This document shows positions 4,466 through 44,117 of a stretch of DNA of 64,000 nt, piece by piece. The notes beneath the pieces are model-generated. The model searched no databases, was not told the origin of the DNA, and saw only the letters and a list, made by a program, of their open reading frames with translations. This DNA comes from Gammaproteobacteria bacterium. GTDB taxonomy: Bacteria; Pseudomonadota; Gammaproteobacteria; QZLD01. The number at the start of each line of letters is the position of its first letter. Position 1 is the stretch's first letter. The stretch lies in contig JAWSVC010000014.1 in NCBI GenBank assembly GCA_033852075.1, positions 113-64,112 on the forward strand. The letters run 5' to 3'. Made by a program: the position numbers and the translations under genes.

Positions 4466-4479
4466 CTACCTATACACCA

Positions 4480-22671: not shown

Positions 22672-23570
22672 TATTGATTACCATTTTTATTCGATTTTTC
22701 CAGGTCGTTGGTCAGGTATTTCATCAAGTCGGATTCAGTAGATAGCAATAATGTTGATTTTTCATCAAAGATCGATTCATATGCCTCTAATGAGCGGATA
22801 AATTCAAAGTAGTCCTGGTCCTGGCTATATGCCTGAGCGTATATCTTTAGTGCTTCCTTATCAGCCTCTCCCTTGATAATCAGAGATTGCTTTTCCGCAG
22901 TCGCTTTGATTTCCTGTGCCTGTCTTTTGGCTTCAGCTACAATTTTACCGGCGTCTTCTCTCCCTTCTGCGCGTATTTTTTCTGCTTCCATCTCTCGTTC
23001 TGCCTTCATGCGCTCATAAACCGATTTCATAACTACGGCAGGATAGGAGAGACGGATAATGCCAATGTGTTCGATGCTAACGCCGTATTTTGTTACGGCG
23101 CTTTGGTTTGATGTTGCTATTAGTTCTTGTTCAATCATATCTATCTTAACTTGTGACGGATCGCTGTTGATGATTTGATGGATGGAGTAATCGCTGAAAA
23201 CAATTCCAAGTTGGGAATTAATCATGTCGCTGATTTTTTGTCTGCCATTATCGATGTTTTGTAGTGATTGAAAAAATACGACAGGATCTTTGATCTTCCA
23301 GGCGATAAAACAGCTGGTTATTATTGGATTTTTATCCCCCAAAAGAAGCTGGATTGGTTGGGTATCGATCTGTTGCAGACGTTTGTCAAAACGGTTTACC
23401 TTATTTATAAAACCAGGCATCTTAAAGTGCAATCCAGGCTGGTCAATGGTGCGAACCGACTTTCCGAACTGGGTTACAATTCCCCATTCCCGCTCATCTA
23501 TTGAGAATGTTGAAGTTACTGATAAACTTGCTGTTAGCAGAATTAAGATGCTAATCACGAATAGGCGCAC
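22671..23570 (-). CDS. SPFH/band-7 protein, HflC-like (299 aa).
   Basis: The C-terminal region YERMKAEREMEAEKIRAEGRE...DYFEFIRSLEAYESIF aligns closely with E. coli HflC (YNRMRAEREAVARRHRSQGQE...DFYAFIRSLRAYENSF). Confidence 0.75.
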   Translation of the reverse strand: MRLFVISILILLTASLSVTSTFSIDEREWGIVTQFGKSVRTIDQPGLHFKMPGFINKVNRFDKRLQQIDTQPIQLLLGDKNPIITSCFIAWKIKDPVVFFQSLQNIDNGRQKISDMINSQLGIVFSDYSIHQIINSDPSQVKIDMIEQELIATSNQSAVTKYGVSIEHIGIIRLSYPAVVMKSVYERMKAEREMEAEKIRAEGREDAGKIVAEAKRQAQEIKATAEKQSLIIKGEADKEALKIYAQAYSQDQDYFEFIRSLEAYESIFDEKSTLLLSTESDLMKYLTNDLEKSNKNGNQ

Positions 23571-25347
23571 GGCGTTTTACCTCTTTTGGTTCTGGGCTTA
23601 CTTCTGGAAGTTTTTGCTCTTGTTGTTGTTTGTTTATTTGCCGGTACAGGAAACGTTCCTTATATAGCAGGTATGTGGATATACCGGAACTTGGCTCGTA
23701 AATGATCTTTTCGCCTTCGCTGATGGATTTAACCTGAGCAGTGAGCTGCATATGCTTAGTGATTATTTGGGGATATTGCCGGTATGAGTCAAGTTGGAGC
23801 AAATAATTCTGGGATTCTCCCTGGGCAAGCTGAATCTTGCTGTTACTTTCTGATTGCGCCTGTGATATCAGTTGCGATGAGTTTAATTTTGCATCGGGTA
23901 TCATCACATTGTGTTTTACCTTGGCCTGATTAATCATGGTTTCTCTGGTTTGAGTAGCTGCGACAAGTTGTTCAAATGATATTGCTACATTTGCAGGAGG
24001 GTGAAAATCTTTTAGATCCAGCCTTACAATCTCCAGTCCGCTTTTTAATTGATCTAACTGTGATTGAATATTTGTGGTTACCTGGTCTACCCACTTTTTG
24101 CGTTTATACAGTGCAAGATCATAAAACTCATTGCGCGTAAAAGTAGCTATTAGTTCTTGCATGCATATCTGAGATGCAAGCTGTTCGGGATTGGTGGTGT
24201 TTAAGAAAAAGTTTTCTACGTCATTAATCCGGTAATGTAATGAGATATAAGGTTGGAAGAAGTTATTATCGGCAGACATAAATTCAAGTTTGTCTCCGTG
24301 TGATTTTCCCCAGATCAGGGCGATGTTTTTATCGCTGATATTTCCAACCTCTATGGTTTTTACCTGACCACTGTTGATCTTATTTGCTTTATCTATAGGC
24401 CATGGCCACTTGAAATATAACCCCGGAGATAATGTGGTCCCAGGATTAATAATGCGGCCAAACCTGGTAATAACAGCTTGTTGATTAATCTCAATCTGTA
24501 CCAGCGAGGTAGAAAGCCAAAATACCACTGCAGCAGTTGTTGCAAGAGCCAAGCCTGCTTTAAGTATTTTTCTGGAAGTGTTTACGATGGATGCCAAGTC
24601 GTTTCTTTTATCAGGATGTAGATCAAAGATATCGCAAAACCATGTGCCGACTTTATTGCCAAGATGGCGATCGAATAGGGAGAAAAGCATGGTGGTGATT
24701 CGATATTCTGTCAAATAGCCATGTTTATGTTTTGTCATAGAAAGCAGCGTGTTTATGCCTGTCTCTACGGCGAAGAGTAATATCATTAGTCCAATTACAC
24801 CACCGATGTATTTATCAACATTGATTCCGAAGTTGTAGATAATCAGCGAAAAACCGGTAAGTAGTGATATCACCATATCGGTGCGGTTGTGCTGGCTATC
24901 AGCCTTTAGTGCAGCTGAGTTTTCTGTTTCTGCGGTTATTGCCTCGAATCGGTAGATGAAAAATGAACCAAAGGAAAGCAGGATAAAGATCATCCCGGTT
25001 ATAAGAGGGTTATCAACAGTTACCGGTTCGCTGGAGAGGATACGTAAAAATATTGATAGCGCGATGATGAAAAGCCAAATACTTATGAGCATGGCGATTA
25101 TCAGCTCAGGGTCTTTCCAGTTATGACGGGGGTTATGAGATGTGTTGTTAGAGTATTCTGTACTACGTCGGTTGCTTAGCCAGATTGTAAATACAACCAA
25201 TGCGGTAGTGGTGATATCGGAGAAGCTATGCCAAGCCTCGGAGAAAACTGCAAGGCTTCCAGAAAGCCAGTAAGCAAAAAACTTAATGACTGTTAGCAGG
25301 GTAATTATTGCAAGGCTTATTATTCCAGCCCTAAGTTTATTTGGCAT
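23551..25347 (-). CDS. Fusion protein (598 aa). An N-terminal cation-diffusion-facilitator-like 6-TM domain is followed by an extra TM and an HflK-like SPFH domain with a long coiled-coil tail.
   Basis: CDF TM2-type motif YWLSGSLAVFSEAWHSFSDI and TM5-type SQHNRTDMV. SPFH core EINQQAVITRFGRIINPGTTLSPGLYFKWPWP. Overlaps the downstream HflC-like gene by 20 nt. Confidence 0.6.
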   Translation of the reverse strand: MPNKLRAGIISLAIITLLTVIKFFAYWLSGSLAVFSEAWHSFSDITTTALVVFTIWLSNRRSTEYSNNTSHNPRHNWKDPELIIAMLISIWLFIIALSIFLRILSSEPVTVDNPLITGMIFILLSFGSFFIYRFEAITAETENSAALKADSQHNRTDMVISLLTGFSLIIYNFGINVDKYIGGVIGLMILLFAVETGINTLLSMTKHKHGYLTEYRITTMLFSLFDRHLGNKVGTWFCDIFDLHPDKRNDLASIVNTSRKILKAGLALATTAAVVFWLSTSLVQIEINQQAVITRFGRIINPGTTLSPGLYFKWPWPIDKANKINSGQVKTIEVGNISDKNIALIWGKSHGDKLEFMSADNNFFQPYISLHYRINDVENFFLNTTNPEQLASQICMQELIATFTRNEFYDLALYKRKKWVDQVTTNIQSQLDQLKSGLEIVRLDLKDFHPPANVAISFEQLVAATQTRETMINQAKVKHNVMIPDAKLNSSQLISQAQSESNSKIQLAQGESQNYLLQLDSYRQYPQIITKHMQLTAQVKSISEGEKIIYEPSSGISTYLLYKERFLYRQINKQQQEQKLPEVSPEPKEVKRRAPIRD

Positions 25348-25666
25348 ATGTTTGCATCGAAGTAAAAAACAAAAATAGGTATAACCTTTTTTCTTTGTTC
25401 AAGAAAAATTGAAAGTTATGCAACTATCTTATCTAAAGAAATAATTTCAACAGAAAAACATTACAAACAGGTGACAATAACGCAAAGTAATAAAATTATG
25501 ATAAAGCGTTTCATGATTATTTAATAAAGATTTAACCAGATTGTAACGATCTGTTATCAAAATCCTTTGCTTGAAACTTGTAGCTTTAATATTTATTTGG
25601 TTCGTCTTTATTAATTATTGTTGCAGGTTAATCCCCTTTTTGAGGCTTAATTTTTAGGAGAGTAAT

Positions 25667-27376
25667 ATGAGACGTTTAATTTCTGTATGCGCTATTACAG
25701 CCGCTGCTATGATTGCATCGCCTGTAGTGAGCGCTGCTAATAGTGATAGTTTAAGACAGAGCAAGAAGGTTAAGAATGTAATCTTTATGATACCTGATGG
25801 ATGCGATGCCAGTGTTCAGACTTTGGCGCGTTGGATGAAAGGTGAGTCACTACAGCTTGATAGCATGAACAATGGTATGGTTCGTACCGAAATGGCTAAT
25901 TCTGTTATCACCGGTTCTGCTGCTGCTTCAACTGCTTTCGCAACAGGCGAGAAAACAACTGTGCGTTTCCTTGGCGTTGCTCCTCGCACAGAAGATATGC
26001 TTTCAACTTATATCCCTCCAGTAGATAAAGAGCCATATGAGCCTATGGCGAGTATTCTTGAAGGAGCCAAACAAAAAGGTAAGGCTACCGGTTTGGTTGC
26101 AACCAGTCGTATTACTCATGCTACTCCAGCTGGTTTTGCTGTGCATATTCATGATCGAGGTATGGATAATGAGATCATGGAACATATGGTTTATCAGGAT
26201 ATCGATGTGGTATTCGGTGGTGGTAAGCGTCATCTATTGCCAAAAAGCGAAGGCGGAAAGCGTACAGATGGTGAAAACCTAGTAAATGTACTTGTTGATC
26301 GTGGTTATCAATTTGTTGAAACCAAAGATCAGCTTGAAGATCTGGAAGAAGGTAAGGCTTGGGGTATGTTCGCATCCAGTCATATGCAGGCAGATATTGA
26401 TCGTGCTGAATTTGCTCCAGAAGAGCCTTCTATTGCAGAAATGACAGCAAAGGCGATCGATCTTCTTTCTCAGGATAAAGACGGTTTCTTCCTAATGGTT
26501 GAAGGTAGTCAGGTTGATTGGGCTGGTCACGCAAATGATCCAAAATATATGTTTACTGATTTCATCGCTTTTGATGAGGCGGTAAAAGTGGCTGTTGATT
26601 TTGCTAAGATGGATGGAAACACCGTTGTTGTTGCTTTCCCGGATCACAATACAGGTGCTTTGAGTATCGGTAATGTTAATACTGATAAGACATATACTAC
26701 ATTAAGTGTTGAAGACATGATGGGACCATTGCAAGGCATGCGCATTACCGGTACTGGTTTGCAGATGAAGATTGGTAACGATCTTTCTCCTGAGAATATC
26801 ATTGCAAACATTCAAGAGTGGTGGGGAATTTCAGCCACAATGGAGGATGCTGCCGAGATTTTAGCTCATATGAATAAAGGCTGGTCTGTAGGTTATGCTA
26901 TTGGTTATGTAATCAGCAAAAACCACACAGTATTCGGTTGGACTACACATGGACACAACGCTGAAGACGTTCAGGTTTGGACTTATGGTATCAACTATCC
27001 TCTAGGTACTATCGATAATACAGATCTTGCAAAAATGGCTGCAGACATGATGCGTTTTGACCTAAAAGACATAGATGCAGAACTGTTTATTGAAGTAAGT
27101 GAAGCTTTCAGTGCGGATGAGTGGGAGCTGGATGCAATCACAGATCCGGAAAACCCTGTTCTTCACATCAAGGACGCAGTTCTTCCTGTATCAAAAGACT
27201 TAGTTATTCAGGGCGATAAAACCACAGAGATGGAAGGTATAGTTGTATATTCTCCAATGAGCGATAAGGTTTATATCCCTAAAGAGGCTGTTGATATAAT
27301 CAATGGTGAAGATGATGATAATGATGATTGCCAATGGCCATGGCCTTGGCTTTGTAAGATTGCTGCAAATGATTAG
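25667..27376 (+). CDS. phoA: Secreted alkaline phosphatase of the PhoA family (569 aa).
   Basis: Blocks align with E. coli PhoA: MIPDGCDAS (GDGMGDS), VITGSAAASTAFATGEKT (VTDSAASATAWSTGVKT), FFLMVEGSQVDWAGHANDP (FFLQVEGASIDKQDHAANP) and AFPDHNTG (TADHAHAS). Signal peptide present. Confidence 0.8.
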   Translation: MRRLISVCAITAAAMIASPVVSAANSDSLRQSKKVKNVIFMIPDGCDASVQTLARWMKGESLQLDSMNNGMVRTEMANSVITGSAAASTAFATGEKTTVRFLGVAPRTEDMLSTYIPPVDKEPYEPMASILEGAKQKGKATGLVATSRITHATPAGFAVHIHDRGMDNEIMEHMVYQDIDVVFGGGKRHLLPKSEGGKRTDGENLVNVLVDRGYQFVETKDQLEDLEEGKAWGMFASSHMQADIDRAEFAPEEPSIAEMTAKAIDLLSQDKDGFFLMVEGSQVDWAGHANDPKYMFTDFIAFDEAVKVAVDFAKMDGNTVVVAFPDHNTGALSIGNVNTDKTYTTLSVEDMMGPLQGMRITGTGLQMKIGNDLSPENIIANIQEWWGISATMEDAAEILAHMNKGWSVGYAIGYVISKNHTVFGWTTHGHNAEDVQVWTYGINYPLGTIDNTDLAKMAADMMRFDLKDIDAELFIEVSEAFSADEWELDAITDPENPVLHIKDAVLPVSKDLVIQGDKTTEMEGIVVYSPMSDKVYIPKEAVDIINGEDDDNDDCQWPWPWLCKIAAND

Positions 27377-27409
27377 TAGTTGATATCAATAATTAGTAGT
27401 TAATGTTTT

Positions 27410-27440
27410 AAGCCACTCCAAACGGAGTGGCTTATTTAAT
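27410..27440 (+). terminator. Hairpin AAGCCACTCC-aaac-GGAGTGGCTT followed by ATTTAAT. Likely phoA terminator.
   Basis: Ten-bp perfect stem 34 nt after the phoA stop codon. Confidence 0.55.
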
Positions 27441-27636
27441 AAATGAACGGCAGCGTTATATAATTAACCGTATGTTTGAGGATGACTTCAAAGGATTTAT
27501 GAATACCTCAAAATACGCCAAACTAGCAAAATGCTCGAATGATACAGCGTTAAGGGATATTCAGGATCTTAAGGCCAAGTCAATATTTATCCAAAACCCT
27601 GGTGGTGGCAGAAGTACCAGTTATCGTATTAAATAA
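27427..27636 (+). pseudogene. C-terminal remnant (about 65 aa, winged-helix tail) of a Fic/Doc-family gene. There is no N-terminal Fic domain upstream.
   Basis: The peptide ...INERQRYIINRMF...SKYAKLAKCSNDTALRDIQDLKAKSIFIQNPGGGRSTSYRIK matches the typical C-terminal wHTH of Fic proteins (…TATRDLKDLVEKGIL..GKGRSTYY). The ORF has only a GTG start and begins inside the phoA terminator. Confidence 0.5.
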
Positions 27637-27702
27637 CCATTTTTTAATCATAGGGTACGAGCTTATATTTTATTATTAATACGGTAAGGAATATATATAG
27701 AT

Positions 27703-28509
27703 ATGTTGAAATCTAAAGATGGGACAAATATACATGTACTTACTAAAGGTTTAGGGAAACCTTTACTATTTTTAAATGGATTAAGGTCAACATTGGGGTG
27801 TTGGAAAAGACAGGTTAATCTACTAAGTAATCGTTATCAATGCGTTTGCTATGATCATCGAGGTGTTGGTAAAAGCGATAAGCCAAGTGTGGTTTATTCC
27901 TTCCAAAATCACATGGATGATATTGAAGCTATAATTAACCATTATTCAATGCAATTTCCTATTTTAATCGGTCACTCAATGGGAGTTATACGCGCTTTGC
28001 AATATGCATTATCAAATCAAGCTAACTTAAAAGGTTTGGTTCTTATTAATGGCGCGGCTCATATCAATATGAGTCTAAAGTTGATGATGCGTACAACACT
28101 AAAAGCTATAGAAAATAATAATAAAGAATTGCTTGATGCCATGAATGAAATTGGCTTGGCAATTACGTTCGGAGAAAAAAGTCTGTTAGATTTAGAACCA
28201 AGATTTAATGATTTTGTTGATTCAGCATTTGCTGGTGTAACGTTGGAGTCTGCGAAAAATTTATATGCAGGAATTTTAGAAGAAGAAATTGATTTGCGAG
28301 AAAGGCTTTCTGAAATAAAAATACCAGTATTGATTGTTGCTGGTGATGAAGATCTTCAATTTCCAAGTAAATATGCTCAAGATATGAGTGAGTTGTTACC
28401 AAATGCTGAATATAGAATGCTAAAAGGGTGCGGTCACTTTGCGCTTAGTGAAAAGCCGGATGAACTAAATGAAATACTGGATGAATTTTTAGAAAGGATA
28501 GGTAAGTAA
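27703..28509 (+). CDS. Alpha/beta-fold hydrolase (268 aa).
   Basis: Nucleophile elbow GHSMG. Conserved HGxG-like region (LFLNGLRSTL...CYDHRGVGKS). C-terminal His motif GCGHF. Confidence 0.75.
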   Translation: MLKSKDGTNIHVLTKGLGKPLLFLNGLRSTLGCWKRQVNLLSNRYQCVCYDHRGVGKSDKPSVVYSFQNHMDDIEAIINHYSMQFPILIGHSMGVIRALQYALSNQANLKGLVLINGAAHINMSLKLMMRTTLKAIENNNKELLDAMNEIGLAITFGEKSLLDLEPRFNDFVDSAFAGVTLESAKNLYAGILEEEIDLRERLSEIKIPVLIVAGDEDLQFPSKYAQDMSELLPNAEYRMLKGCGHFALSEKPDELNEILDEFLERIGK

Positions 28510-28999
28510 AAAAATGGAGCTAGGGATTCGATAATTATAGATAACATATTGAAATATAATGATATGGATGCCGAAAAATCTATCCGGTGTTACTAAAATT
28601 AAATGTCACGCTTTATATTTAGCGTGAATATTTAAATAAACTCCAAAGCCCATGTTGTCCATAAATTCTTATACTGGTTTTCTAATTCAAGCAGCTTATT
28701 TCTTTCTGTATTGAAGGTATTTCAGCGCATCCATTTTGGTTTAGGCGGATACTCTGAATTTCCATATAAATCATCAAGATATAAATGTTGCCCCCCCTCA
28801 AACATTTCTTTACGCTTTTTTCGTATCCTATAATGGCACAGGATTTGGGGACAGATAATGGAATACAATAAAGAAATTCAATCTAAAAATGACGAGAAAT
28901 GACGAGTGGACTAAAGAAAAGAGTGTATGTTTTTCCTATAATCCTTAGATAGTTGTGTCATTTTACTCTAAAAAACAATGAAAAAAGGAGAATCTTCTG

Positions 29000-31900
29000 T
29001 TGCAATTTCAGGGATATAGTGTTGATGGCATTGTAGACAGCAGTGACAGTACTATTGTCTATAGAGCCAGAAGCGGTGACGGGGATGAAAAAATTATCAT
29101 CAAAGTGACTGCAAAGGAGTATCCTTCAGAATCTGAACTTTCAAGATACAGACATGAATATGAGGTGCTCAAATCAGTAAGTATTGACGGAGTTGTTGAT
29201 ATTGTTGATCTGAAAAGCAGCAATAAGGGACTTGCTCTTTTTTTTAAGGATTTTGGTGGAACATCACTATCCACATTGATAAAGACAGACACCTTTCCTC
29301 TTATGGAAAAACTATCAATAATGAGGAAAGTTACTGATATTGTCGGAAGAATTCATGAAAACAAAATAATTCACAAGGATATAAATCCATCAAACATAAT
29401 ATACAACCGCAAGGACTCTATTCTTAAAATTATCGATTTTGGTATCGCTGATAAGTTAACTTCATCTCAGGATGCATCAATTTCAAGCAGCAGCTTTGAA
29501 GGAACTCTTGCCTATATGGCTCCTGAACAGACCGGAAGAATAAACAGAAAAACTGATTACAGATCAGACCTCTATTCTTTAGGTGCGACTTTTTATGAAA
29601 TACTTACCGGAAATCCACCATTTGTTTCAGATGATCCAATGGAGTTTATCCATTCACATATTGCCAAAACGCCTATTCCCCCTGTGAAATTCAACGAGGA
29701 TATTCCAGACGTTGTATCTGCTATTGTAATGAAGCTTTTGTCAAAGGATCCTGAAGACAGATATCAGAGTGCTGCAGGACTTTCTTTAGATTTTCAGAAT
29801 GTAATTAAAGCACTGGAAGAGAATGGGGCAGCAGATTTCTTTACTCTGGCTGAGAGAGATATTTCTACAGTTTTAAATATTCCTTCAAAGTTATATGGCA
29901 GAGAAAAACAGATTTCTTTGTTAATGAATGTGTTTGAAAGAGTATCAGAAGGACGAAGTGAAATAGTTCTTGTAAATGGATATGCCGGTGTTGGTAAAAG
30001 TTCACTGGTAATGGAGATTCACAAACCGGTAGTTAAGCACAGAGGCTATTTTATACAGGGTAAATTTGATCAGTATAAAAGAGATGTTCCATACTCTTCA
30101 TTTATTTCTGCTTTCAAGGAAATGATCAGACTCATTATGGTGGAGAGTGAGGAGAATATTGATTTCTGGAAAGAGAAAATTCTATCTGCAGTTGGAGTGA
30201 ATGGAAAGGTTATTCTTGAGGTTATTCCTGAACTGGAAAGTATAATAGGGCTTCAGCCGGAAATTCCTGACCTTCCACCTGAAGAATCAAAGAACAGATT
30301 TAAGTACACTTTCAAAAATTTTGTAAAGGCTATTTCAACAAAGGAGCACCCTCTTGTCATATTTTTTGATGATCTGCAGTGGGCTGATTCTGCTTCTCTG
30401 GAACTTATTCATCTTCTTACAACGGATAGCGATCTGGGGTATGCTTTAATTATAGGAGCATCAAGAGAAGAAGATCTGAATAGATCAGAAAGTACTAATA
30501 CCCTGAAGGAAATAGCTAAAGATGGTGGGGTAATTACAGAGATAAAACTGACTCCTCTTGAAATAAGGGATGTTGTAAATCTGCTGTCTGATACTGTTCA
30601 ATGTGATAAAAAAAATGTTACTGACCTTGCTGAACTTTGTTATAAAAAAACCGCAGGTAATCCGTTTTTTCTGAATCAATTCATAAATATGCTTTATGAA
30701 GAAGATCTGATCCACCTTAATATATCTCTGAGAGAATGGAAATGGAATCTGAAAAACATTATGTCCGCCAACTTTACGGACAATGTTATAGATTTCATGA
30801 TTCAGAAAATCGGGAAGGTTGATTCTGAGGCTCAGGAAATGCTTAAAAAGGCAGCTTGTATAAGTAGTGAATTTGATCTGAAAATGCTCTCTATTGTGGC
30901 TGAAAAGTCTGAAATTGATGTGGCAGAAAGCTTATGGCAATGTATGTCAGAAGGGCTGATCCTTCCTGTTAGGGGTGTTTTTACAATATCAGCTCTTCAG
31001 AATATTGATATTAATTTTGAAAATGCACCTGTCTACAAGTTTGTACATGACAGGGTGATGCAGGCAGCATATTCAATGATTGCTGAAGAAAAGAGAAAAG
31101 AGCTGCATCTTAAAATTTTCAGATTAATGAATGAACGTATTTCAACAGATGTATTTGATGAAAAACTTTTTGATATAGTAAATCAGTTGAATTACTGCAG
31201 AGAACTAATTGATGAAGATGATGAAAGATACTTATCTGCATCAATCTACCTTAAAGCCGGAATCAAAGCAAAAAGTTCAGCTGCCTATAATACAGCCAGA
31301 AACTGTTTTACATCTGCTGTTTCTTTATTAAATAAAAAAGACTGGGAACAGAAATATGAACTTACCAGAGATGTCTATCTGGCGGCGGCAGAAGCAGAGT
31401 ATCTCTGCACAGACCTTGAGAGTATGGAAAATCTGGTAAGTACCTTTCTTGAAAATGCAAAAACAAAGATGGATATAGTTAAGATCTATGAAGTCAGAGT
31501 AAGAGGCAAGATTGCATCCGGAGACAGGATGGATGCTATAAAAGATGGCATAGATATTTTAAAAAAACTTGGTGTTAAACTGAAACTTCATCCTACAAAG
31601 CTTGATGTTCTTTTTGCACTGATTAAAACAAGAATAAGTTTTATGTTATCAGGTAAAAGTCTTGAGAATCCAATTGAAATGACAGATTCCGATAAACTGG
31701 CAACTATGAAATTCTTCTCTCTTGTAGGGCCTTCAGCATATGTTGTTGAACCAAACTTAACGCCATTAATCATTCTTAAGCTGGCTGAATTTTCTGTAAG
31801 ATATGGGCAGTCCAGATTTTCAGCTTTTGCTCATGTGACTTATGGTTATCTTTTAACAGCATATATTGGTGACTTGGAAAATGGGTACAAGGAAGGCGTA

Positions 31901-34051
31901 AGAGGTCTTGAGGTTGCGGATAAGTATGATGTAAAAGGAATGTTTGCAAAATCAAGAATGCTTTTCGGTTGTTACATCCAGCACTACAGACACCATGCGA
32001 AAGATGCAATTCCTATTCTCTTTGAAGGATATTATAAAGGATTGGATGCAGGTGATTTTGAGTTTGCTGCATACGATATTCTTATCTATCTGTTTAATAG
32101 TTTTGTAACTGGAAAAAACCTAGATGAACTCAGGGCAGAAATTAATAAATATGAAAAGGAAGTTTACCAGATAAAGCAGACTGTTCAGCTCAGATGGATA
32201 AGAATTTATCACCAGATGTCTATTTATCTTATTGATGGTCCTCATAAAAGCGGAAATTTTGAAGGGAGCGTTTTTAAAGAGAGTGAAATGCTTCCTGATA
32301 CTAATGAAGATAAGGATAAAACTGCAGTTTTTAATCTTCTTTCAAGTAAAATGATAGTAAATTTTATTTATGATAAATTGGAAATTGCCCAGCAAAACGG
32401 AGAAGAAGCAGAAAAAAATCTTCATTATGTAATCGGTTCTTTTGATTATCTTCTGTTTCCATTTAACTATTCCTATGTACTACTGGGGATGTATGAATCT
32501 GTTGACGATAAAAGGAAGAAAGAAATTTTAAGAAAAGTTAAAAAATATCAGAAGAAGGCAAAACCAATTATAAAAAGTGCACCTGAAAACTATCTTCATA
32601 AATACAGGCTTGTTGAAGCGCTTCTTGCTGATATTTCAGGAGATATTTTAAAAGCTATAAATCTTTTTGATGAAGCGATAAAACTGGCTGGGGAAAATGG
32701 ATTTATCATGGATGAGGCTGTTGCCAACGAGTTTGCTGCCAAATTCTATGTAAAAAGAGGAAAAGAAAAAACTGCTAAAATATATTTTACAGATGCATTT
32801 TATCTATACAGAACCTGGGGAGCTGTTGCCAAGTCGGAAAAAATAATAAGAGATCATAAGGATTTTATACTTTTGGATATGCCGTCTTCCTTCTCAAATT
32901 CATACAGAACAACTATAACTCACTTTTGCGCAGATACAACAATACCAGATGCTTCAGCAACTCTTGATTTCAAGTCTCTTTTAAAAGCTTCCATGACTGT
33001 TTCCATGGAGATTGTTCTGGATAAACTTCTCGAGAATCTTATGAGAATTATTGTTGAAAATGCAGGAGCACAGAATGGGGTTCTCATTTTAAAAAATGGT
33101 AAAAAATTTCTAGTGGAATCTGAATGGGGCTTCGAGGATAATTCTGTAAAAGTTCTTAGATCTATTCATCTGGATGAATATCAAAATATTCCCAAAAGTA
33201 TAGTTAACTATGTAATAAGATCAAAAGAATCTGTTGTCCTTGATAACGCTGCTGAACATAACAAATATTCTAATGATGAATACATTAAAAAGTATTCGCC
33301 AAAATCAGTTGTATGTGCACCTTTAATTAAAAAGGGCGAAATTACAGGTGTTTATTATCTGGAAAATAATGCTGTAGCTAATAGTTTTACTCAGGATAGG
33401 CTGGAAGTTTTAAATATACTTAGTTCTCAGGCTGCAATTTCAATTGAAAATGCCTATCTTTATCATTCTCTGGAAGATACAAATAAAAATCTGGAACAGA
33501 AAGTAAAAGAGAGGACAATGGAGCTTTCTGATGCATATGAAAAAATCAAGCATCTTGCAATGGTTGATTCTCTTACAGGACTTCCCAACAGAAGAAATAT
33601 TCTCGAGAAAATAGAACATGAAAAAGTTCGCGGTCAAAGATCCCAAAAGCCATTCTCAGTTATTATTGGAGATATTGACTTCTTCAAAAAATTCAATGAT
33701 ACCTATGGTCATGACTGCGGAGATTTTGTTCTTAAAAAAGTTGCAGATACTATTAAGAAATCTCTTAGAAAACAGGATTATGTAGCTAGATGGGGTGGAG
33801 AAGAGTTTCTTTTAATTCTTCCTGAAACCGATGGCTCAGGCTCTGTAGTTGCTGCTGAACAGGTTAGAAAAAGTGTTGAAGAGAGCAATTTAATCTATAA
33901 GGATGTTCCTCTTAATATCACAATGACATTCGGAACTTCCACTTTTAACTTTGGTGATGATTTTGAAGAGAAGCTAAAAGCTGCAGACGAAGCTCTTTAT
34001 GAAGGAAAAGAGAGCGGCAGAAACAGAGTTGTCCTTAGTTCTTCTAATTAG
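29000..34051 (+). CDS. Giant multidomain signalling protein (1683 aa). Domain order: Ser/Thr protein kinase, AAA_16-type NTPase, TPR-like helical array, GAF, GGDEF diguanylate cyclase. A TTG start follows a strong SD (AAGGAG 9 nt upstream).
   Basis: Kinase motifs HKDINPSNII, DFGIA and APEQ. Walker A GYAGVGKSS. GGDEF motif RWGGEEF with DHD in ...DTYGHDCGDF. Arg codons are predominantly AGA/AGG, whereas core genes here use CGT/CGC. Confidence 0.8.
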   Translation: MQFQGYSVDGIVDSSDSTIVYRARSGDGDEKIIIKVTAKEYPSESELSRYRHEYEVLKSVSIDGVVDIVDLKSSNKGLALFFKDFGGTSLSTLIKTDTFPLMEKLSIMRKVTDIVGRIHENKIIHKDINPSNIIYNRKDSILKIIDFGIADKLTSSQDASISSSSFEGTLAYMAPEQTGRINRKTDYRSDLYSLGATFYEILTGNPPFVSDDPMEFIHSHIAKTPIPPVKFNEDIPDVVSAIVMKLLSKDPEDRYQSAAGLSLDFQNVIKALEENGAADFFTLAERDISTVLNIPSKLYGREKQISLLMNVFERVSEGRSEIVLVNGYAGVGKSSLVMEIHKPVVKHRGYFIQGKFDQYKRDVPYSSFISAFKEMIRLIMVESEENIDFWKEKILSAVGVNGKVILEVIPELESIIGLQPEIPDLPPEESKNRFKYTFKNFVKAISTKEHPLVIFFDDLQWADSASLELIHLLTTDSDLGYALIIGASREEDLNRSESTNTLKEIAKDGGVITEIKLTPLEIRDVVNLLSDTVQCDKKNVTDLAELCYKKTAGNPFFLNQFINMLYEEDLIHLNISLREWKWNLKNIMSANFTDNVIDFMIQKIGKVDSEAQEMLKKAACISSEFDLKMLSIVAEKSEIDVAESLWQCMSEGLILPVRGVFTISALQNIDINFENAPVYKFVHDRVMQAAYSMIAEEKRKELHLKIFRLMNERISTDVFDEKLFDIVNQLNYCRELIDEDDERYLSASIYLKAGIKAKSSAAYNTARNCFTSAVSLLNKKDWEQKYELTRDVYLAAAEAEYLCTDLESMENLVSTFLENAKTKMDIVKIYEVRVRGKIASGDRMDAIKDGIDILKKLGVKLKLHPTKLDVLFALIKTRISFMLSGKSLENPIEMTDSDKLATMKFFSLVGPSAYVVEPNLTPLIILKLAEFSVRYGQSRFSAFAHVTYGYLLTAYIGDLENGYKEGVRGLEVADKYDVKGMFAKSRMLFGCYIQHYRHHAKDAIPILFEGYYKGLDAGDFEFAAYDILIYLFNSFVTGKNLDELRAEINKYEKEVYQIKQTVQLRWIRIYHQMSIYLIDGPHKSGNFEGSVFKESEMLPDTNEDKDKTAVFNLLSSKMIVNFIYDKLEIAQQNGEEAEKNLHYVIGSFDYLLFPFNYSYVLLGMYESVDDKRKKEILRKVKKYQKKAKPIIKSAPENYLHKYRLVEALLADISGDILKAINLFDEAIKLAGENGFIMDEAVANEFAAKFYVKRGKEKTAKIYFTDAFYLYRTWGAVAKSEKIIRDHKDFILLDMPSSFSNSYRTTITHFCADTTIPDASATLDFKSLLKASMTVSMEIVLDKLLENLMRIIVENAGAQNGVLILKNGKKFLVESEWGFEDNSVKVLRSIHLDEYQNIPKSIVNYVIRSKESVVLDNAAEHNKYSNDEYIKKYSPKSVVCAPLIKKGEITGVYYLENNAVANSFTQDRLEVLNILSSQAAISIENAYLYHSLEDTNKNLEQKVKERTMELSDAYEKIKHLAMVDSLTGLPNRRNILEKIEHEKVRGQRSQKPFSVIIGDIDFFKKFNDTYGHDCGDFVLKKVADTIKKSLRKQDYVARWGGEEFLLILPETDGSGSVVAAEQVRKSVEESNLIYKDVPLNITMTFGTSTFNFGDDFEEKLKAADEALYEGKESGRNRVVLSSSN

Positions 34052-34060
34052 TCTTCCCTG

Positions 34061-34082
34061 AAAAAGTGCTTTCCTGCACTTT
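34061..34082 (+). terminator. Hairpin AAAAGTGC-tttcct-GCACTTTT, a weak terminator after the giant gene.
   Basis: Eight-bp stem about 10 nt after the stop codon. The U-tract is part of the stem. Confidence 0.3.
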
Positions 34083-34294
34083 TCCAGTAGTCGCTGCAAA
34101 AATGCTAACGCAAAACGTGGTTGTGCTTGAATTTTCTTGCTCGCATTTGCCTCAACGGCAAATGACGGGCTGTCCATGGCCCGCTCGTCGACCAGAAAAA
34201 ACGATTTTAGAGTAGATTCCTAGTCGAAATGATCATATGTTTTTTGAGTCGAAGCCTTGTGCTTCGGGTTCTCATCCTAATTTTCAAGCTATCA

Positions 34295-34343
34295 AATAAA
34301 AAAACCTTGTCCAGACGCGCTTCGCTTAAAGTCTTGACAAGGG
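34295..34343 (-). terminator. Rho-independent terminator downstream of tRNA-Ser. The stem is CCTTGTCAAGAC/GTCTGGACAAGG-like, followed by a T7 run on the minus strand.
   Basis: Twelve-bp stem with one mismatch, then TTTTTTT (minus strand), 12 nt after the tRNA 3' end. Confidence 0.6.
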
Positions 34344-34355
34344 TTTTGAATTCGA

Positions 34356-34445
34356 TGGCGGAGAGCGAGGGATTCGAACCCTCGATAGAGTTACCCCTAT
34401 ACACCCTTAGCAGGGGTGCGCCTTCAGCCACTCGGCCAGCTCTCC
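34356..34445 (-). tRNA. serV: tRNA-Ser (anticodon GCU), 90 nt, with a long variable arm.
   Basis: Reverse complement reads GGAGAGCTGGCCGAGTGG...CCCCTGCTAAGGGTG...GAGGGTTCGAATCCCTCGCTCTCCGCCA. The anticodon loop is CT-GCT-AA. Position downstream of csrA mirrors the E. coli arrangement. Confidence 0.85.
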
Positions 34446-34548: not shown

Positions 34549-34752
34549 TTATTGATTACCGAAGTTGTCGTCCATACCGTCGGTTTCTTTTTCTCTTCTG
34601 ATTCTTTCGTAAATTTCTTCACGGTGTACAGATACTTCTTTAGGTGCGTTAACACCAATACGTACCTGGTTTCCTTTAACACCTAATACGGTAACAGTTA
34701 CATCGTCACCAATCATTAATGTTTCGCCTACTCTTCGTGTAAGTATAAGCAC
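34549..34752 (-). CDS. csrA: Carbon storage regulator CsrA (67 aa).
   Basis: [51 protein letters not shown] is near-identical to E. coli CsrA. Confidence 0.95.
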
Positions 34753-36945: not shown

Positions 36946-36994
36946 AAAATTGTTAATTGTAGATTTAGTGTATAATGACCAAATTGATTATGCC

Positions 36995-39900
36995 ATGGAT
37001 GGATCTTTTGTGCTGAAACTTTATCAGAGCAATAAATTGGAAATTCTACTGGAATACCTGAATGACTCGCTGGCAACAGGTAGAACTAATCCTTTGATAC
37101 CTGAACGTATAATTGTTCAAAATAGTGGAGTAGGACAATGGGTTGCGCAGCAATTGGCCTCCAAAATCGGTATTTTTGCTAACTTTAGTTTTGAACTACC
37201 AACCAGTTTTGCCTGGGATATTATTCGCAAATTTATTGATGCCCCTTTACGCGCTGATTTAGAAAAGGATGAATTGGTTTGGCAGATATTTGCTCAAATT
37301 TATTCACAATCGCAGGATTTGGAAGAAGTGCAGGTCTATTTGGGGAATAAAACTAGCGCTGATTTTGATAACAAATTATTTAATCTTTCTTATCAGTTAG
37401 CTGATATTTACGATCAATATCAGGTTTATCGTCAGGACTGGGTTTTATGTTGGGATAAAAGAAATGGTTGGGATAAAGAAGGCAGTTGTGGAAAATGTGA
37501 GGTAGATAGTAACCACTGGCAGGTGCGTCTTTGGCAAAAAATATCTCAAACCGGATCAGAAAATCACCGTGCTGCTTTGATGAATGAATTTTTTGAATTG
37601 TTTCAAAGTGGAAACTTTAGTTCTGAACAAATAATTAAAAATCTTCCGCAAAGAATATCGATATTTGGCATTGATACCCTAGCTCCGATCTATCTGCAGT
37701 TTTTTGCAGTGTTATCTGAATACATAGATGTAACTATTTATAGCTTTAATGCATGTATGGAGTATTGGGGCGATATTGCCTCAGAAAAGCAACTTGCGAG
37801 CAGGCGCCTGCGGGGTGAAGCCTCAGATATGGTTGAATATATCGAAACAGGTAATAATCTACTTTCGTCTATGGGCAAGGTAGGTCGAGCTTATCATGAG
37901 CTATTGCTAAACCATGATATTCAGGAATTTGATTGCTTTGATAAGTTTGGTGTTGAGGAATTTGAAGGCACGTTCGGCCTTTTGCAAAATGTTCAGAATG
38001 ATATCCTGACATTGCAGAATGGTTCTGGGAATTGCGATGTTCCCGATGGATCAATTCAGGTACATGACTGCCATACTTCACTTAGAGAATTAGAGGTGTT
38101 GCATGATCAATTATTGAATATGTTTGATAATGATGATCAGCTGAAACCTAGCGATATTGTGGTTATGACTCCAGATATCAATAAGTACGCACCGTCTATT
38201 GAGGCAGTTTTTGGAAGCAAGTTATCAGTTGATAACCAATATGGGTCTGACCTGTATATCCCTTGGTCAATTGCAGATAGAACAACTGTTGTCGAAAGTC
38301 CCGTTATTCAAGCACTGTTACAGCTTGTAGGTATCTCCAAATCCAGAATGACTGCTAGTGAGGTAATTGAGGTTTTAAAGGTTCCCGCTGTTACTTCACG
38401 TTTTGGTTTAACAGAAAAAGATCTGAATAATATTTTGCAGTGGATTGATGCTAGCGGCATTCGTTGGGGGCTTGATTCTCATTTTCGTAAAAGATTTGGC
38501 TTGCCTGAAACTGAACTGAATAGCTGGCAGTTTGGGTTGGAACGGATGTTATTGGGATACGCTCTGGGTGGTGATTCTCAGATTTGTTTTGATAGATGTG
38601 GTTATGAGCAGATAGAGGGGAGTAATGCTGAGACTCTTGGAAGGTTAACGCAGTTTATTTATAAAATAGGATTATTTATAGATCAGTTTTCATCGAAGCA
38701 TAGTGCTTTGGATTGGCAACTTATCTTAAATAGTTTGGTGGATACTTTCTTTAATGAAGACGAAGAGAGTGAGGCCGTGTTACAGCAGGTAAGAAGCTAT
38801 ATTGATGATATGGTGAATATCTGTGAGAAGACCCCGCTGTTTGAGCAAGATGTTTTAGATATTGATGTTATTCAGGAATATCTTACCCAAGGATTAACTA
38901 ATCAGGTCAGCGGGGGGGCATTTATAGCAGGTAAGGTAACATTTTGTACTTTACAACCAATGCGTGCAATTCCATTCAAGGTGGTTTGCCTGCTTGGGAT
39001 GAATGATGGCGAGTTTCCTCGGCAGTCTAAACGTTCATCCTTAGATTTGATTGCTCATAACAGGCCAAGGTTGGGCGATAGAAACAGAAGGGATGATGAT
39101 AGATATCTGTTTTTGCAATCTTTGCTTTCGGCTAGAGATAAACTTTATATTAGCTATAGCGGTCGTAGTGTAATTGATAATTCATATAAGATGCCGTCAA
39201 CTTTGGTTTGTGAATTATTTGATTATTTTGAAAGATATTACTCGATAGAGCAAAAAGATCTGGTAACCATACATCCGTTACAGCCTTTCGATAAAGAATA
39301 CTTTGGCTCTGATTCAGGGAACAGTTTTCTTCAAAACTCAAGGCTGTTTAGCTATGCCAAACATTGGTTAAAAGCATCTGATTCTAAGGATATAAATCAA
39401 CAATTAGGTATTTTTATTGATCAGGATTTGCCGGATCCAGAAGAAGAGTTTCGAACTATTACTATTGATGATCTTCTACGATTCTTTAAAAATCCTGCAG
39501 CATTTTTATTAAAGAATAGATTGAGTATTAATCTAGATATCCCAGATATTCAATTGCACGACGATGAGCCATTCGCGCTTGGTTATCTTGAAAACTATAA
39601 TATCAGTGATCAACTTCTGCATGGATTTTTACACGGACAGGAACGGGATAATTTATATCTGCAAAGCAGTTTGTCCGGTGATTTGCCTTATGGTTACCTT
39701 GGTAAAAAGAATTTTAATGTTGTTGCCGATGGTATTGAAGAATTGGCAGAAAAGATCAAACCATTTATCGAATTACCTTTGCTGCGAGTTAGTGGTGAGA
39801 TTGAATTGCAGAATATTCATTTATCAGGAGTGATTGACGATCTATTTGATGAAGGATTGATTCTGTATAGAGCAGGGAAACTACGTCCGATCGATAGAAT

Positions 39901-40294
39901 TGAATTAAATATAAAGCACTTGTTTTTGCAGTTGGTTGCAAACTTTAATAAGCCCGCATATTTCTTTGCGGTTGACGATGAACTTATTCTTAATCCTGTT
40001 ACAGACCCAGTAGCTGAATTATCTAAAATTCTGAATTTTTATTGGCAAGGGTTGTATTCACCATTTCCATTTTTCGCTAATACCTCATTTGCATACGCGC
40101 AAACAGTTATTGAGAAGAATGATGCAGAAAAGGCAATGGAAGAGGCTCGCAAAGTCTGGAATGGTTATATGTTTTCCGGTGAGGCTCAGGAACCATATAA
40201 TTGGGTAATCTATAAAGGTTATTTTCCGGAACATGATAAGTTCGTAGATACTGCTGTTGATGTATTTGATCAGCGATTACTGGGGGAATGCTAA
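36995..40294 (+). CDS. recC: Exodeoxyribonuclease V gamma subunit RecC. The likely ATG is at 36995; the ORF tracker's TTG at 36950 is unlikely. A TATAAT hexamer lies at 36971-36976.
   Basis: Long collinear similarity to E. coli RecC: LYQSNKLEILLEYL (VYHSNRLDVLEALM), IPFKVVCLLGMNDGEFPRQ and RRDDDRYLFLQSLLSARDKLYISYSGRS. Confidence 0.9.
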   Translation: MDGSFVLKLYQSNKLEILLEYLNDSLATGRTNPLIPERIIVQNSGVGQWVAQQLASKIGIFANFSFELPTSFAWDIIRKFIDAPLRADLEKDELVWQIFAQIYSQSQDLEEVQVYLGNKTSADFDNKLFNLSYQLADIYDQYQVYRQDWVLCWDKRNGWDKEGSCGKCEVDSNHWQVRLWQKISQTGSENHRAALMNEFFELFQSGNFSSEQIIKNLPQRISIFGIDTLAPIYLQFFAVLSEYIDVTIYSFNACMEYWGDIASEKQLASRRLRGEASDMVEYIETGNNLLSSMGKVGRAYHELLLNHDIQEFDCFDKFGVEEFEGTFGLLQNVQNDILTLQNGSGNCDVPDGSIQVHDCHTSLRELEVLHDQLLNMFDNDDQLKPSDIVVMTPDINKYAPSIEAVFGSKLSVDNQYGSDLYIPWSIADRTTVVESPVIQALLQLVGISKSRMTASEVIEVLKVPAVTSRFGLTEKDLNNILQWIDASGIRWGLDSHFRKRFGLPETELNSWQFGLERMLLGYALGGDSQICFDRCGYEQIEGSNAETLGRLTQFIYKIGLFIDQFSSKHSALDWQLILNSLVDTFFNEDEESEAVLQQVRSYIDDMVNICEKTPLFEQDVLDIDVIQEYLTQGLTNQVSGGAFIAGKVTFCTLQPMRAIPFKVVCLLGMNDGEFPRQSKRSSLDLIAHNRPRLGDRNRRDDDRYLFLQSLLSARDKLYISYSGRSVIDNSYKMPSTLVCELFDYFERYYSIEQKDLVTIHPLQPFDKEYFGSDSGNSFLQNSRLFSYAKHWLKASDSKDINQQLGIFIDQDLPDPEEEFRTITIDDLLRFFKNPAAFLLKNRLSINLDIPDIQLHDDEPFALGYLENYNISDQLLHGFLHGQERDNLYLQSSLSGDLPYGYLGKKNFNVVADGIEELAEKIKPFIELPLLRVSGEIELQNIHLSGVIDDLFDEGLILYRAGKLRPIDRIELNIKHLFLQLVANFNKPAYFFAVDDELILNPVTDPVAELSKILNFYWQGLYSPFPFFANTSFAYAQTVIEKNDAEKAMEEARKVWNGYMFSGEAQEPYNWVIYKGYFPEHDKFVDTAVDVFDQRLLGEC

Positions 40295-43848: not shown

Positions 43849-44117
43849 TTAAATATATTTGAATTGCCTAGATTTCTTCGAGAAATATAAATTTTAGAAA
43901 AAAGCTAATGGTTCAAAGCATTTATATTGGTATTGTGATAACTTTTAAAGTCTGGACTATAATTAAGTTATATTACTTTGCCTATAAGTAAGGTATATGG
44001 GTCTGTTTGTTTAAAGATTGATGTTTGGTTTTATAAAAAGCGCATTAAACAGTGGGTGAAAGCTGTTAATGGTGTACATAGATATACGCTTTTAGGAATT
44101 TTTGATTTTTAATAGAC

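Follow-up and report, generated by a model that had tools for sequence, protein, structure and literature searches.

The family of proteins that join a kinase to an NTPase reaches its greatest abundance in cyanobacteria, where its members serve as housekeeping-type sensors (PMC2176072). Its closest described systems are the cyanobacterial “dual protein kinases” HstK/Alr2258 and Pkn41/Pkn42 (cbSTKIII), in which an N-terminal Hanks kinase with an HKD motif, an AAA_16 nucleotide-binding oligomerisation domain (NOD), a long helical region and a GAF domain precede a HisKA/HATPase output with or without a receiver. NCBI annotates these proteins as trifunctional Ser/Thr kinase/ATP-binding protein/sensor histidine kinase. 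In the fungal group X hybrid histidine kinases (Candida albicans Chk1 and S. pombe Mak2/Mak3), S_TKc, AAA and GAF domains likewise stand before the output (PMC9069115). A 1826-aa protein of Clostridium thermocellum carries a kinase, 6 TPRs and a GGDEF domain (Krupa & Srinivasan 2005, PMC1262709). Counterparts of the central region are the STAND proteins PH0952 (6mfv) and MalT, where a core of nucleotide-binding (NBD), helical (HD) and winged-helix (WHD) domains is followed by a TPR-like solenoid; the activation scheme for STAND proteins runs from a closed form with ADP bound to an open one with ATP bound that multimerises (PMC6468293). This large family has barely been studied biochemically, judging by the literature we searched, in which we found neither a biochemical characterisation of any protein with Pkinase-AAA_16-GAF-GGDEF architecture nor an experimental characterisation of members with a GGDEF output.

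The gene described here lies in a 64-kb stretch of DNA from an uncultured gammaproteobacterium (“the window”, to which all coordinates refer). Its product shares its first ~1490 residues with the cyanobacterial dual kinases (37-41% identity over ~90% of the query) but ends in a GGDEF domain and belongs to a gammaproteobacterial rather than a cyanobacterial host. Because only these N-terminal residues are common and HisKA and HATPase_c are absent, we did not class it as an HstK-type dual kinase. The fungal group X kinases, likened to it by their described architecture, differ in being eukaryotic and in their histidine kinase-receiver output. PH0952 and MalT share the order of core and solenoid without detectable sequence similarity outside the P-loop, and whereas the effector of MalT is a DNA-binding domain, here the effectors at either end of the protein are enzymes.

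Domain architecture and predicted fold

An intact open reading frame of 1683 codons occupies positions 29000..34051 of the forward strand. It starts at a TTG codon nine bases downstream of a Shine-Dalgarno sequence (AAGGAG, 28985-28990), as proposed in a first-pass annotation made from the sequence alone; the span given there for the gene, 28510-34355, exceeds its actual extent at both ends. Homologues cover 99-100% of the protein when aligned.

A Pfam scan of the product returned four domain matches, every one far above its gathering score and all in agreement with the domains and motifs quoted in that annotation. A Hanks-type protein kinase domain (Pkinase, residues 19-257, E 2e-38, 132.8 bits, cut-off 31.7) is encoded at 29054..29770 and is followed by an AAA_16 match (residues 297-484, E 5e-42, 144.6 bits, cut-off 32.6). 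Near the C-terminus are a GAF domain (residues 1340-1482, 33017..33445, E 6e-14, 53.3 bits), then a helical linker and a GGDEF diguanylate cyclase domain (PF00990, residues 1520-1676, 33557..34027, E 2e-45, 155.1 bits, cut-off 23.8). The GGDEF part also scored 172 bits with TIGR00254 (cut-off 37.4), and the NCBIfam DgcA model aligned over 12-339/340 with the GAF-GGDEF module at a score under the DgcA cut-off. Neither Pfam nor NCBIfam matched HisKA or HATPase in the protein, whose C-terminus is the GGDEF domain. The product is thus a predicted cytoplasmic signalling protein of the family in which Ser/Thr kinase, STAND NTPase, TPR-like sensor and GAF domain are followed by a variable output.

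The region between the kinase and GAF domains matched none of the Pfam TPR models. Since sequence searches of the PDB with the NOD-TPR core, both single and profile, returned nothing but P-loop noise, we modelled residues 281-1330 with AlphaFold2 (pLDDT 79.7, pTM 0.73) and compared folds instead. In the model a five-strand alpha/beta NBD is followed by a helical bundle and small beta-hairpin winged helices; together they form a predicted nucleotide-binding oligomerisation module of the STAND type (residues 281-695, 29840..31084). About 30 paired, antiparallel helices then make up a TPR-like alpha-solenoid of some 600 residues (residues 696-1289, 31085..32866), across which pLDDT is mostly 80-95. 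The top Foldseek match in the PDB was the STAND-TPR protein PH0952 (6mfv_A, E 2e-9), with further matches to Cdc6/Orc1, NLRs and MalT (8bob) and to the TPR proteins APC/C subunits, Tom70, Ski3 and SPY. A long TPR-like array, which had been read from the sequence, is therefore found as a solenoid behind the NOD core, although it has no Pfam TPR match. With Walker A and B motifs, an NBD, a helical domain and a winged helix ahead of a repeat sensor, the modelled module is predicted to be a STAND NTPase, and its solenoid is presumed to act as a sensor or autoinhibitory arm.

Catalytic residues

We compared the active-site residues of the protein with those of 26 diverse family members. The kinase domain has the catalytic loop HKDINPSN (125-132), a DFG motif at D146 and an APE motif (174-176), and its core residues K35, E53, H125-K126-D127, N132, D146-F-G and A174-P-E are invariant or nearly so. 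Its glycine-rich loop, on the other hand, is degenerate: it reads DSSDSTIVY (family consensus ESxNSxVY), all three glycines of GxGxxG being replaced, and HKD with an invariant K126 stands in place of HRD. Because the glycine loop is lost and HRD has become HKD, the residues predict an atypical, non-RD member of the Hanks-type kinases.

The NTPase has a Walker A motif, GYAGVGKS (327-334; GYAGVGKSS at 327-335), and a Walker B motif, VIFFDD (453-458; FFDD at 455-458), and G327, G330, G332, K333, D457 and D458 are invariant. In the GGDEF domain the active site GGEEF (1599-1603) is accompanied by DIDFFKKFND (1558-1567) and GKESGRNR (1669-1676). The allosteric I-site of PleD and WspR, RxxD, sits five residues before GG[DE]EF; here RKQD (1590-1593) is followed by YVARW and then by GGEEF. 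Active-site and I-site motifs are all intact, and the domain is a predicted diguanylate cyclase.

Relationship to other family members

The GGDEF output had been called unusual in the first-pass annotation. This view did not survive a count of the best 119 homologues, whose outputs include histidine kinase (43), cyclase (26), GGDEF (22) and PP2C (20) domains: the full Pkinase-AAA_16-GAF-GGDEF architecture occurs in 22 of them, and the clostridial protein with kinase, TPRs and GGDEF has been in print since 2005. Database proteins of this architecture (P0002-P0004, P0039, P0042, P0107, P0108 from Herminiimonas and P0113 from Crinalium) resemble the query in domain order, in length (1639-1711 aa) and in their GGEEF and RxxD motifs, but are merely 36-40% identical to it. 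The NOD-TPR core family comprises 10,688 clusters at 50% identity, and 160 plasmid records hold homologues that cover at least 80% of the query, which speaks for the family's mobility. The matches listed for the whole protein in genome contigs were distant ones to the GGDEF domain and a single full-length one at 31%. In a rough neighbor-joining tree, the GGDEF-type members were scattered among those with other outputs and the query stood alone on a long branch. By sequence, then, the protein is ordinary, if very divergent, within a known family of very large size. From the point of view of annotation, too, the result is ordinary: an accessory signalling gene of known architecture.

We searched about 15 billion proteins in two ways, by word index against 5.8 billion clusters and exhaustively with HMMER against 1.84 billion representatives. 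The protein matched only itself at 100%; the next match was at 39% in the word-indexed search and at 41% with HMMER, so that this collection holds no other protein above 41% identity, and the protein's own cluster has one member. Any ortholog called in the collection should have surfaced. For lysC, 870 bp from the ORF, about nine relatives were found at 86-90% identity.

A genome-specific segment beside tRNA-Ser

Homology to relatives stops at ~27,441 and restarts at ~34,247. The 6.8 kb between (~27,441-34,246) are specific to this genome and join two blocks that lie apart in the relatives, and hence mark a synteny break. We placed the left edge at ~27,441 because the terminator-like hairpin after the alkaline phosphatase (AlkP) gene (27410..27433, forward strand) is the last sequence common to relative L137 in a pairwise DNA alignment through the AlkP stop, and the right edge at ~34,246 because the 3' flank of tRNA-Ser is conserved with L085. 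The relatives have the order recB-recC-acetyltransferase-lysC-csrA-tRNA-Ser, then unrelated content; in L137 and L138 an HflK-HflC-CDF/Band7-AlkP block is followed by parC/parE. What lies beside tRNA-Ser in the relatives is an integrase island, a FeoAB-CDF block or MCP blocks, and an att-like 17-mer is duplicated in two of them. With both flanking blocks compared, the 1683-aa gene was absent from the loci of about 10 relatives, all of them metagenome-assembled genomes (MAGs) or metagenome contigs, from which a copy elsewhere could escape through incomplete assembly. A search of metagenome contigs with AlkP, in a collection that does not contain the host clade, gave a best match of 55-56%, on short contigs.

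The segment opens with the 3'-terminal remnant of a Fic-family gene (27441..27636, forward strand), ~65 of ~380 residues that correspond to the C-terminal winged-helix part. Phmmer aligned it with residues 303-369 of the Fic family protein 8cil_A in the PDB (E 1.4e-5), and Pfam gave weak HTH matches; the Fic homology begins right at the left breakpoint. An alpha/beta-hydrolase gene follows (27703..28509, forward strand, 268 aa; Abhydrolase_1, E 1e-27), which is of ordinary composition (rho CpG 0.83) and is not found beside AlkP in L137 and L138. We considered it as an ortholog of the lysC-side hydrolase of L086-L088 and rejected this at 26% identity. The large gene is preceded by a non-coding leader of 490 bp (28510..28999) that carries its Shine-Dalgarno sequence. 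A zone of gene remnants had been supposed here; neither translation in six frames nor scanning against Pfam at E<=10 revealed any at 28510-29000 or at 34052-34355, and the true remnant is the Fic C-terminus. Nothing in plasmids matched 27377-29000 by blastn.

Ten bases past the ORF stop is a terminator-like hairpin (AAAAAGTGC-TTTCCT-GCACTTTT, 34061..34083, forward strand), and the RNA fold of 34040-34360 has z = -4.0. The native 3' flank of tRNA-Ser (34247..34355, reverse strand) includes a terminator hairpin at 34305-34342 and is conserved in L085 by multiple alignment. Next come tRNA-Ser(GCU) (34356..34445, reverse strand; ARAGORN and Rfam), the sole match in an Rfam scan of 27.0-35.2 kb for riboswitches and other RNAs, and csrA (34549..34752, reverse strand), which is part of a conserved lysC-csrA-tRNA-Ser core block; Pfam CsrA was found at the equivalent position in all relatives compared (lysC-side loci). 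The ORF thus adjoins the csrA-tRNA-Ser locus, as first described.

Like tRNA-linked genomic islands, the segment borders the 3' end of a tRNA at which relatives have an integrase island, is missing from relatives, and has conserved flanks, a cargo gene of foreign composition and a degraded fic gene. It differs from them in that the native tRNA 3' flank is in place and foreign composition is confined to the ORF. No integrase or transposase occurs in the window, there is no integrase ORF at 27.4-34.4 kb, the 3' 25-mer of the tRNA occurs once in the window with up to 3 mismatches allowed, and there are no long direct repeats. A classical tRNA island is therefore not marked by an integrase or att repeat in the window.

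A model for signalling by the protein

We offer the following scheme tentatively, as one possible reading of the architecture: a STAND switch, operated by ADP/ATP exchange and by ligand-released autoinhibition of the TPR arm, would multimerise the protein, pairing the GGDEF domains and activating a non-RD kinase that has no glycine loop, so that one sensing event would yield both c-di-GMP and protein phosphorylation. At rest the TPR arm would keep the ADP-bound NOD closed. A ligand or partner sensed by the TPR-like region, the GAF domain or both could then trigger exchange of ADP for ATP and multimerisation; this, together with the helical linker from GAF to GGDEF, would pair the GGDEF domains for c-di-GMP synthesis, which the RxxD I-site would cap through product inhibition. 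The N-terminal kinase, gathered by the same multimerisation, may phosphorylate itself or a partner and thereby give a second output or a feedback. If the scheme were true, modules of this kind could be plugged into a new host and signal there with no need of partner genes, since this copy would have arrived recently as one self-contained gene. The proposed coupling of STAND multimerisation to c-di-GMP synthesis is testable.

Two other readings of the protein were weighed. The kinase domain might be a pseudokinase that binds nucleotides or serves as a scaffold without catalysis, which would leave the protein as a regulated diguanylate cyclase only. The replacement of all three loop glycines and of HRD by HKD, both family-wide, would fit this reading; nevertheless, the beta3 Lys, the alphaC Glu, the catalytic Asp and Asn, DFG and APE are so well conserved that we argue for retained phosphotransfer, and the Pfam Pkinase score is high. 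We consider a pseudokinase doubtful. It is considerably harder to see the protein as an anti-phage or conflict sensor of the Avs/NLR-like STAND type, in which recognition of a pathogen would turn on kinase and nucleotide-signal effectors. Such a role would suit a protein that combines a STAND NTPase, a TPR-like sensor and N-terminal effector domains and is encoded in a variable region beside a tRNA and a fic remnant; the PADLOC kinase models PD-T4-6, mad6, MkoA and Stk2 match the kinase domain, and GGDEF domains have been described among the signal generators of conflict systems, though as rare ones (PMC7159879). However, the PADLOC matches are limited to the generic kinase domain (residues ~4-285) and leave the NTPase and sensor unmatched, the neighbors are the hydrolase, the fic remnant and housekeeping genes with no partner defence genes nearby, and the family swaps classical signalling outputs (histidine kinase, cyclase, PP2C and GGDEF) and is commonest among the housekeeping-type sensors of cyanobacteria (PMC2176072). 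A defence role is therefore very unlikely.

Composition and origin of the gene

In the first-pass annotation a foreign origin had been argued from codon choice, with Arg mostly as AGA/AGG in this gene and as CGT/CGC in recC, asnS and the TPR lipoprotein. The first half of this held: AGR codons make up 61 of 65 Arg codons in the ORF vs 273 of 705 (Fisher p 2.5e-19), with Leu, Gln and Ser choices shifted as well. The second half did not, as recC, asnS and the TPR lipoprotein use AGR for 49%, 52% and 35% of Arg codons. Taking the 64-kb window alone as the “genome” reference, the dinucleotide delta* of the ORF, 144.7, is the maximum (mean 55, sd 27), and its rho CpG is 0.40 vs 0.81. Depletion of CpG is seen in all three codon phases and in every 500-bp bin of the ORF (rho 0.24-0.50, vs 0.83-1.2 in both flanks), and the CpG and AGR anomaly ends exactly at the ORF borders. 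Because the hydrolase and the non-coding DNA are native-like in composition, the 6.8-kb segment is not one homogeneous island.

Other measures are unremarkable. The GC3 (0.268), Karlin codon bias (0.247) and GC of the ORF lie inside the range of the window's genes, so GC3 and global codon statistics, which had been suggested as a check, do not make it an outlier. The segment is slightly AT-rich, as had been said (GC 0.33-0.37 vs ~0.38 for the window), but not special in this, since 43-47 kb is as AT-rich.

Taken together, an identity of 41% or less to any other protein, the absence of the gene from the loci of about 10 relatives and the CpG and AGR anomaly over the ORF agree with the foreign origin first proposed: no ortholog was found at the same locus in close relatives, and AGR and CpG differ from the average. 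We infer that this accessory gene for a GGDEF-output protein of a known family, found in this genome only, probably came in by horizontal transfer at single-gene scale, its donor being AT-rich, CpG-poor and AGA-preferring. The locus would then illustrate cleanly how one gene is acquired with no obvious mobile element, its foreign signature confined to an ORF in a rearranged region beside a tRNA that has been targeted repeatedly in relatives.

It could be speculated that the gene is instead an old resident which came down by vertical descent and has disappeared from all the relatives sampled, and that its odd codons and CpG content stem from a gene-specific constraint such as very low expression. 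Unexceptional GC3 and overall codon bias, native-looking hydrolase and intergenic DNA, the lack of mobility genes and att repeats and the incompleteness of the sampled MAGs are all consistent with this. In an old resident, however, amelioration would be expected, yet rho CpG is 0.40 up to the exact ORF borders and in all codon phases; other long regulatory genes of the window are normal (e.g., the hybrid kinase at 44118..47645, rho 0.81, AGR 0.61); independent losses would be needed in all ~10 relatives across at least four locus types; and homologues nowhere exceed 41%. Long residence is thus unlikely. Another possibility is an assembly or binning chimera, with the ORF of another organism joined to this contig by misassembly, as a metagenome-derived contig with a sharp change of composition at the ORF borders might suggest. 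This is extremely unlikely: an independent Logan contig matches 21656..34384 with 0 mismatches in 3 samples and runs from AlkP through the fic remnant, the hydrolase and the ORF into the start of tRNA-Ser; DNA of relatives is homologous on both sides of the ORF within 200-1600 bp; and misassembly would rarely deliver exactly one intact gene with its own Shine-Dalgarno sequence and terminator. Horizontal acquisition therefore remains our preferred explanation.

As for the putative donor, the two nearest neighbors in the tree were tried and rejected: L148 also favors AGR but differs in CpG level and in its CAG/CTT preferences, and L149 does not resemble the query. The best match to the codon usage of the ORF was a weak one, to a low-GC Firmicutes-like contig, at RSCU r 0.80-0.86, vs 0.66 to the window.

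Domain architecture of the large protein

The first-pass annotation had described a single ORF combining a kinase, an NTPase, a TPR-like array, a GAF domain and a GGDEF domain. This ORF lies at 29000..34051 on the forward strand (1683 codons), and its TTG start is preceded by the Shine-Dalgarno sequence AAGGAG at 28985-28990; the start is credible because the resulting N-terminus lines up with those of homologues. Pfam placed Pkinase at residues 19-257, AAA_16 at 297-484, GAF at 1340-1482 and GGDEF at 1520-1676, all far above gathering score, and NCBIfam agreed (TIGR00254 GGDEF, 172 bits against a cut-off of 37). Every motif quoted earlier for the protein is present, and its multidomain organization was confirmed, with the TPR-like array supported by a predicted structure. 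The GGDEF domain also has an I-site RxxD (RKQD, 1590-1593), which precedes GGEEF by the canonical five residues.

No Pfam TPR model matched the protein, and PDB searches with the middle region (about 1,000 residues), as a single sequence and as an eight-member profile, returned only P-loop noise. We therefore modeled residues 281-1330 with AlphaFold2 from an 8-member alignment (pLDDT 79.7, pTM 0.73). In the model, a five-stranded alpha/beta NTPase fold is followed by a helical bundle, winged-helix elements and paired helices, about 30 of them at model residues 416-1009. Foldseek against PDB ranked the STAND-with-TPR protein PH0952 first (6mfv_A, E 2e-9), then Cdc6/Orc1, plant and animal NLRs, MalT and numerous TPR solenoids. 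At the level of a predicted structure, this fold order and this ranking support the reading that the middle region comprises a STAND NTPase and a TPR-like array.

A divergent member of the kinase-STAND family

Apart from its self match (100%), the best match of the large protein had 39% identity, and its 90% cluster has one member. An exhaustive HMMER search with the NOD-TPR core (the STAND nucleotide-binding module and the TPR-like helical arm) against 1.84 billion cluster representatives found the nearest neighbor at 41% identity and recovered 10,688 family representatives with E<=1e-30. Of the 150 best matches, almost all span the full core, beginning near residue 281 like the query. As judged from these comparisons, the large gene is a very divergent new member of a known, very large family. 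Members of the family are also found on plasmids (160 records, mostly Nostocales megaplasmids).

Among the 119 best non-self matches of the large protein, the output is a histidine kinase in 43, a class III cyclase in 26, GGDEF in 22 (some with PAS or EAL), PP2C/SpoIIE in 20 and another type in eight. GGDEF-type proteins are dispersed among the other types in a rough neighbor-joining tree of the shared region, which suggests that outputs have been swapped repeatedly within the family. The cyanobacterial members known as “dual protein kinases” (HstK, Pkn41/42; PMC2176072) have a histidine kinase output whereas the large protein has GGDEF. A 1826-residue Clostridium thermocellum protein with a kinase, 6 TPR and GGDEF was listed in 2005 (PMC1262709). 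Given this listing and the GGDEF count among homologues, we reject the earlier view of c-di-GMP synthesis as an unusual output.

In 26 aligned members, K35, E53, H125-K126-D127, N132, D146 and P175-E176 of the kinase and the Walker A glycines and lysine and D457-D458 of the NTPase are invariant or nearly so. Throughout the family, the glycine-rich loop of the kinase (residues 13-23, 29036-29068) lacks its glycines and the catalytic loop is an invariant HKD, not HRD (non-RD; residues 125-127, 29372-29380), yet the remaining catalytic residues are all kept. A defense role is unsupported, since PADLOC models match the generic kinase domain only.

We infer each step of a possible mechanism by analogy with PH0952 and MalT (PMC6468293). 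The TPR arm would keep the ADP-bound NOD closed until a ligand at the TPR and/or GAF modules brought about ATP binding and multimerization. Diguanylate cyclases work only when two GTP-loaded domains meet, and multimerization together with the GAF-GGDEF helical linker would pair the GGDEF domains. The I-site may restrain output, while the N-terminal non-RD kinase could act as a second output or as feedback.

Genomic context

The neighbors of the large gene are typical of a gammaproteobacterium: csrA (34549..34752) and tRNA-Ser(GCU) (34356..34445), both on the reverse strand, lie on one side with lysC, an acetyltransferase, recC and recB, and HflK, HflC, a CDF-Band7 fusion and alkaline phosphatase lie on the other. 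HflK-like and HflC-like genes and the 598-aa fusion form an operon at 21721..25347 (reverse strand); the fusion joins a cation-diffusion-facilitator membrane domain to a Band_7/HflK-like domain, as do about 80 homologues. At 36950..47645, and in the relatives' contigs L082 and L085, a gene for a large hybrid histidine kinase, not recD, comes after recC and recB, and no recD was seen within the 64-kb window.

About nine relatives, all uncultured Gammaproteobacteria, match lysC at 86-90% identity. Their contigs keep the lysC-csrA-tRNA-Ser block and vary past the tRNA. The closest relatives, L082 and L083, have a tyrosine integrase/AlpA island exactly at the tRNA-Ser(GCU) 3' end (Arm-DNA-bind_3/Phage_integrase and AlpA, at 11969-13219 and 4417-5667). 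L085 and L142 have an MCP-containing block and a second copy of the 17-nt tRNA 3' end 204 bp downstream (11991-12007 and 11993-12009), which is an att-like scar of past integration or excision. A FeoAB-CDF insertion occupies the site in L086, L087, L146 and L147, and two unnamed ~240-aa proteins and an MCP in L088, L144 and L145. The large gene is absent from all of these contigs; orthologs at the same locus in all close relatives, which would have spoken against foreign origin, were not found. On the other side, relatives of the CDF-Band7 protein (71%) have parC/parE after alkaline phosphatase instead of the hydrolase and the large gene. The site, next to a tRNA, is a rearranged junction at which insertions vary between relatives.

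DNA alignment delimited a genome-specific segment of 6.8 kb. At its left edge (~27,441), homology to L137, a relative's contig from the alkaline phosphatase side, stops just past a common terminator hairpin; at its right edge (~34,246), homology to L085 covers ~110 nt 3' of the tRNA, terminator included. Exactly where L137 homology ends, a truncated Fic-family gene begins (27441-27636, forward strand), of which the winged-helix C-terminal part alone survives (8cil_A residues 303-369, E 1.4e-5). An alpha/beta hydrolase follows, then 490 bp with no homology detectable by Pfam, Rfam, plasmid blastn or six-frame translation, and then the large gene, which brings its own Shine-Dalgarno sequence and terminator-like hairpin. 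Between it and tRNA-Ser, a long hairpin (CCTTGTC...GACAAGG, 34305-34342) with T-runs on both sides is kept in L085 with compensatory changes and is probably a bidirectional terminator.

Composition and origin

Codon and GC3 statistics, proposed as a check on foreign origin, were unremarkable against the other window genes (GC 0.350, GC3 0.268, Karlin codon bias 0.247). More specific signals did set the gene apart: 61 of its 65 Arg codons are AGR, compared to 273/705 elsewhere (Fisher p 2.5e-19), and it also avoids NCG codons and departs in its codon choices for Leu, Gln and Ser. The Arg contrast drawn with recC, asnS and the TPR lipoprotein was nevertheless overstated, as these use 35-52% AGR. 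The dinucleotide signature distance of 29001-34000 was the window maximum (144.7; mean 55, sd 27). Rho CpG was 0.24-0.50 in all 500-bp bins within the ORF, compared to 0.83-1.2 in the intergenic DNA on either side and in the hydrolase, and a minimum of 0.53 among other window genes. CpG is depleted at codon positions 1-2, 2-3 and 3-1, indicating a dinucleotide bias and not mere codon preference. A second outlier of opposite compositional direction is the CobN-like chelatase region (7705-14525, reverse strand, especially 8387..12472), with GC 0.45-0.46, 8-9% Arg AGR and a tetranucleotide correlation to the window down to 0.80.

No integrase was found in the segment beside tRNA-Ser, and a search of the window for tRNA 3'-end duplicates and long direct repeats found no att repeat. 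Since the native tRNA flank is also intact and the foreign composition is confined to the ORF, the segment is not a classical tRNA island.

The large gene is probably of foreign origin, as the first-pass annotation proposed: no match exceeds 41%, the gene is missing from relatives' loci and the CpG/AGR anomaly is limited to the ORF. Recent horizontal acquisition fits these observations. Vertical inheritance could also leave the gene missing from relatives' loci if it was lost multiple times, and we consider this unlikely. An assembly artefact is more improbable still: a separately assembled Logan contig (three samples) matches 21656..34384 with no mismatch, which argues against a chimera.

Codon usage of the large gene is closer to that of a low-GC Firmicutes-like contig with a homologue (r 0.80-0.86) than to that of the window genes (0.66). 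Other compositional features of that contig differ from the large gene, and no donor can be assigned. The homologue P0107 lies on L148 (GCA_050260055.1), a contig labelled Ignavibacteriales. Its neighbors there are SLH-domain, SpoIIID and DUF1540 genes, a context that is Firmicutes-like and conflicts with the taxonomic label.
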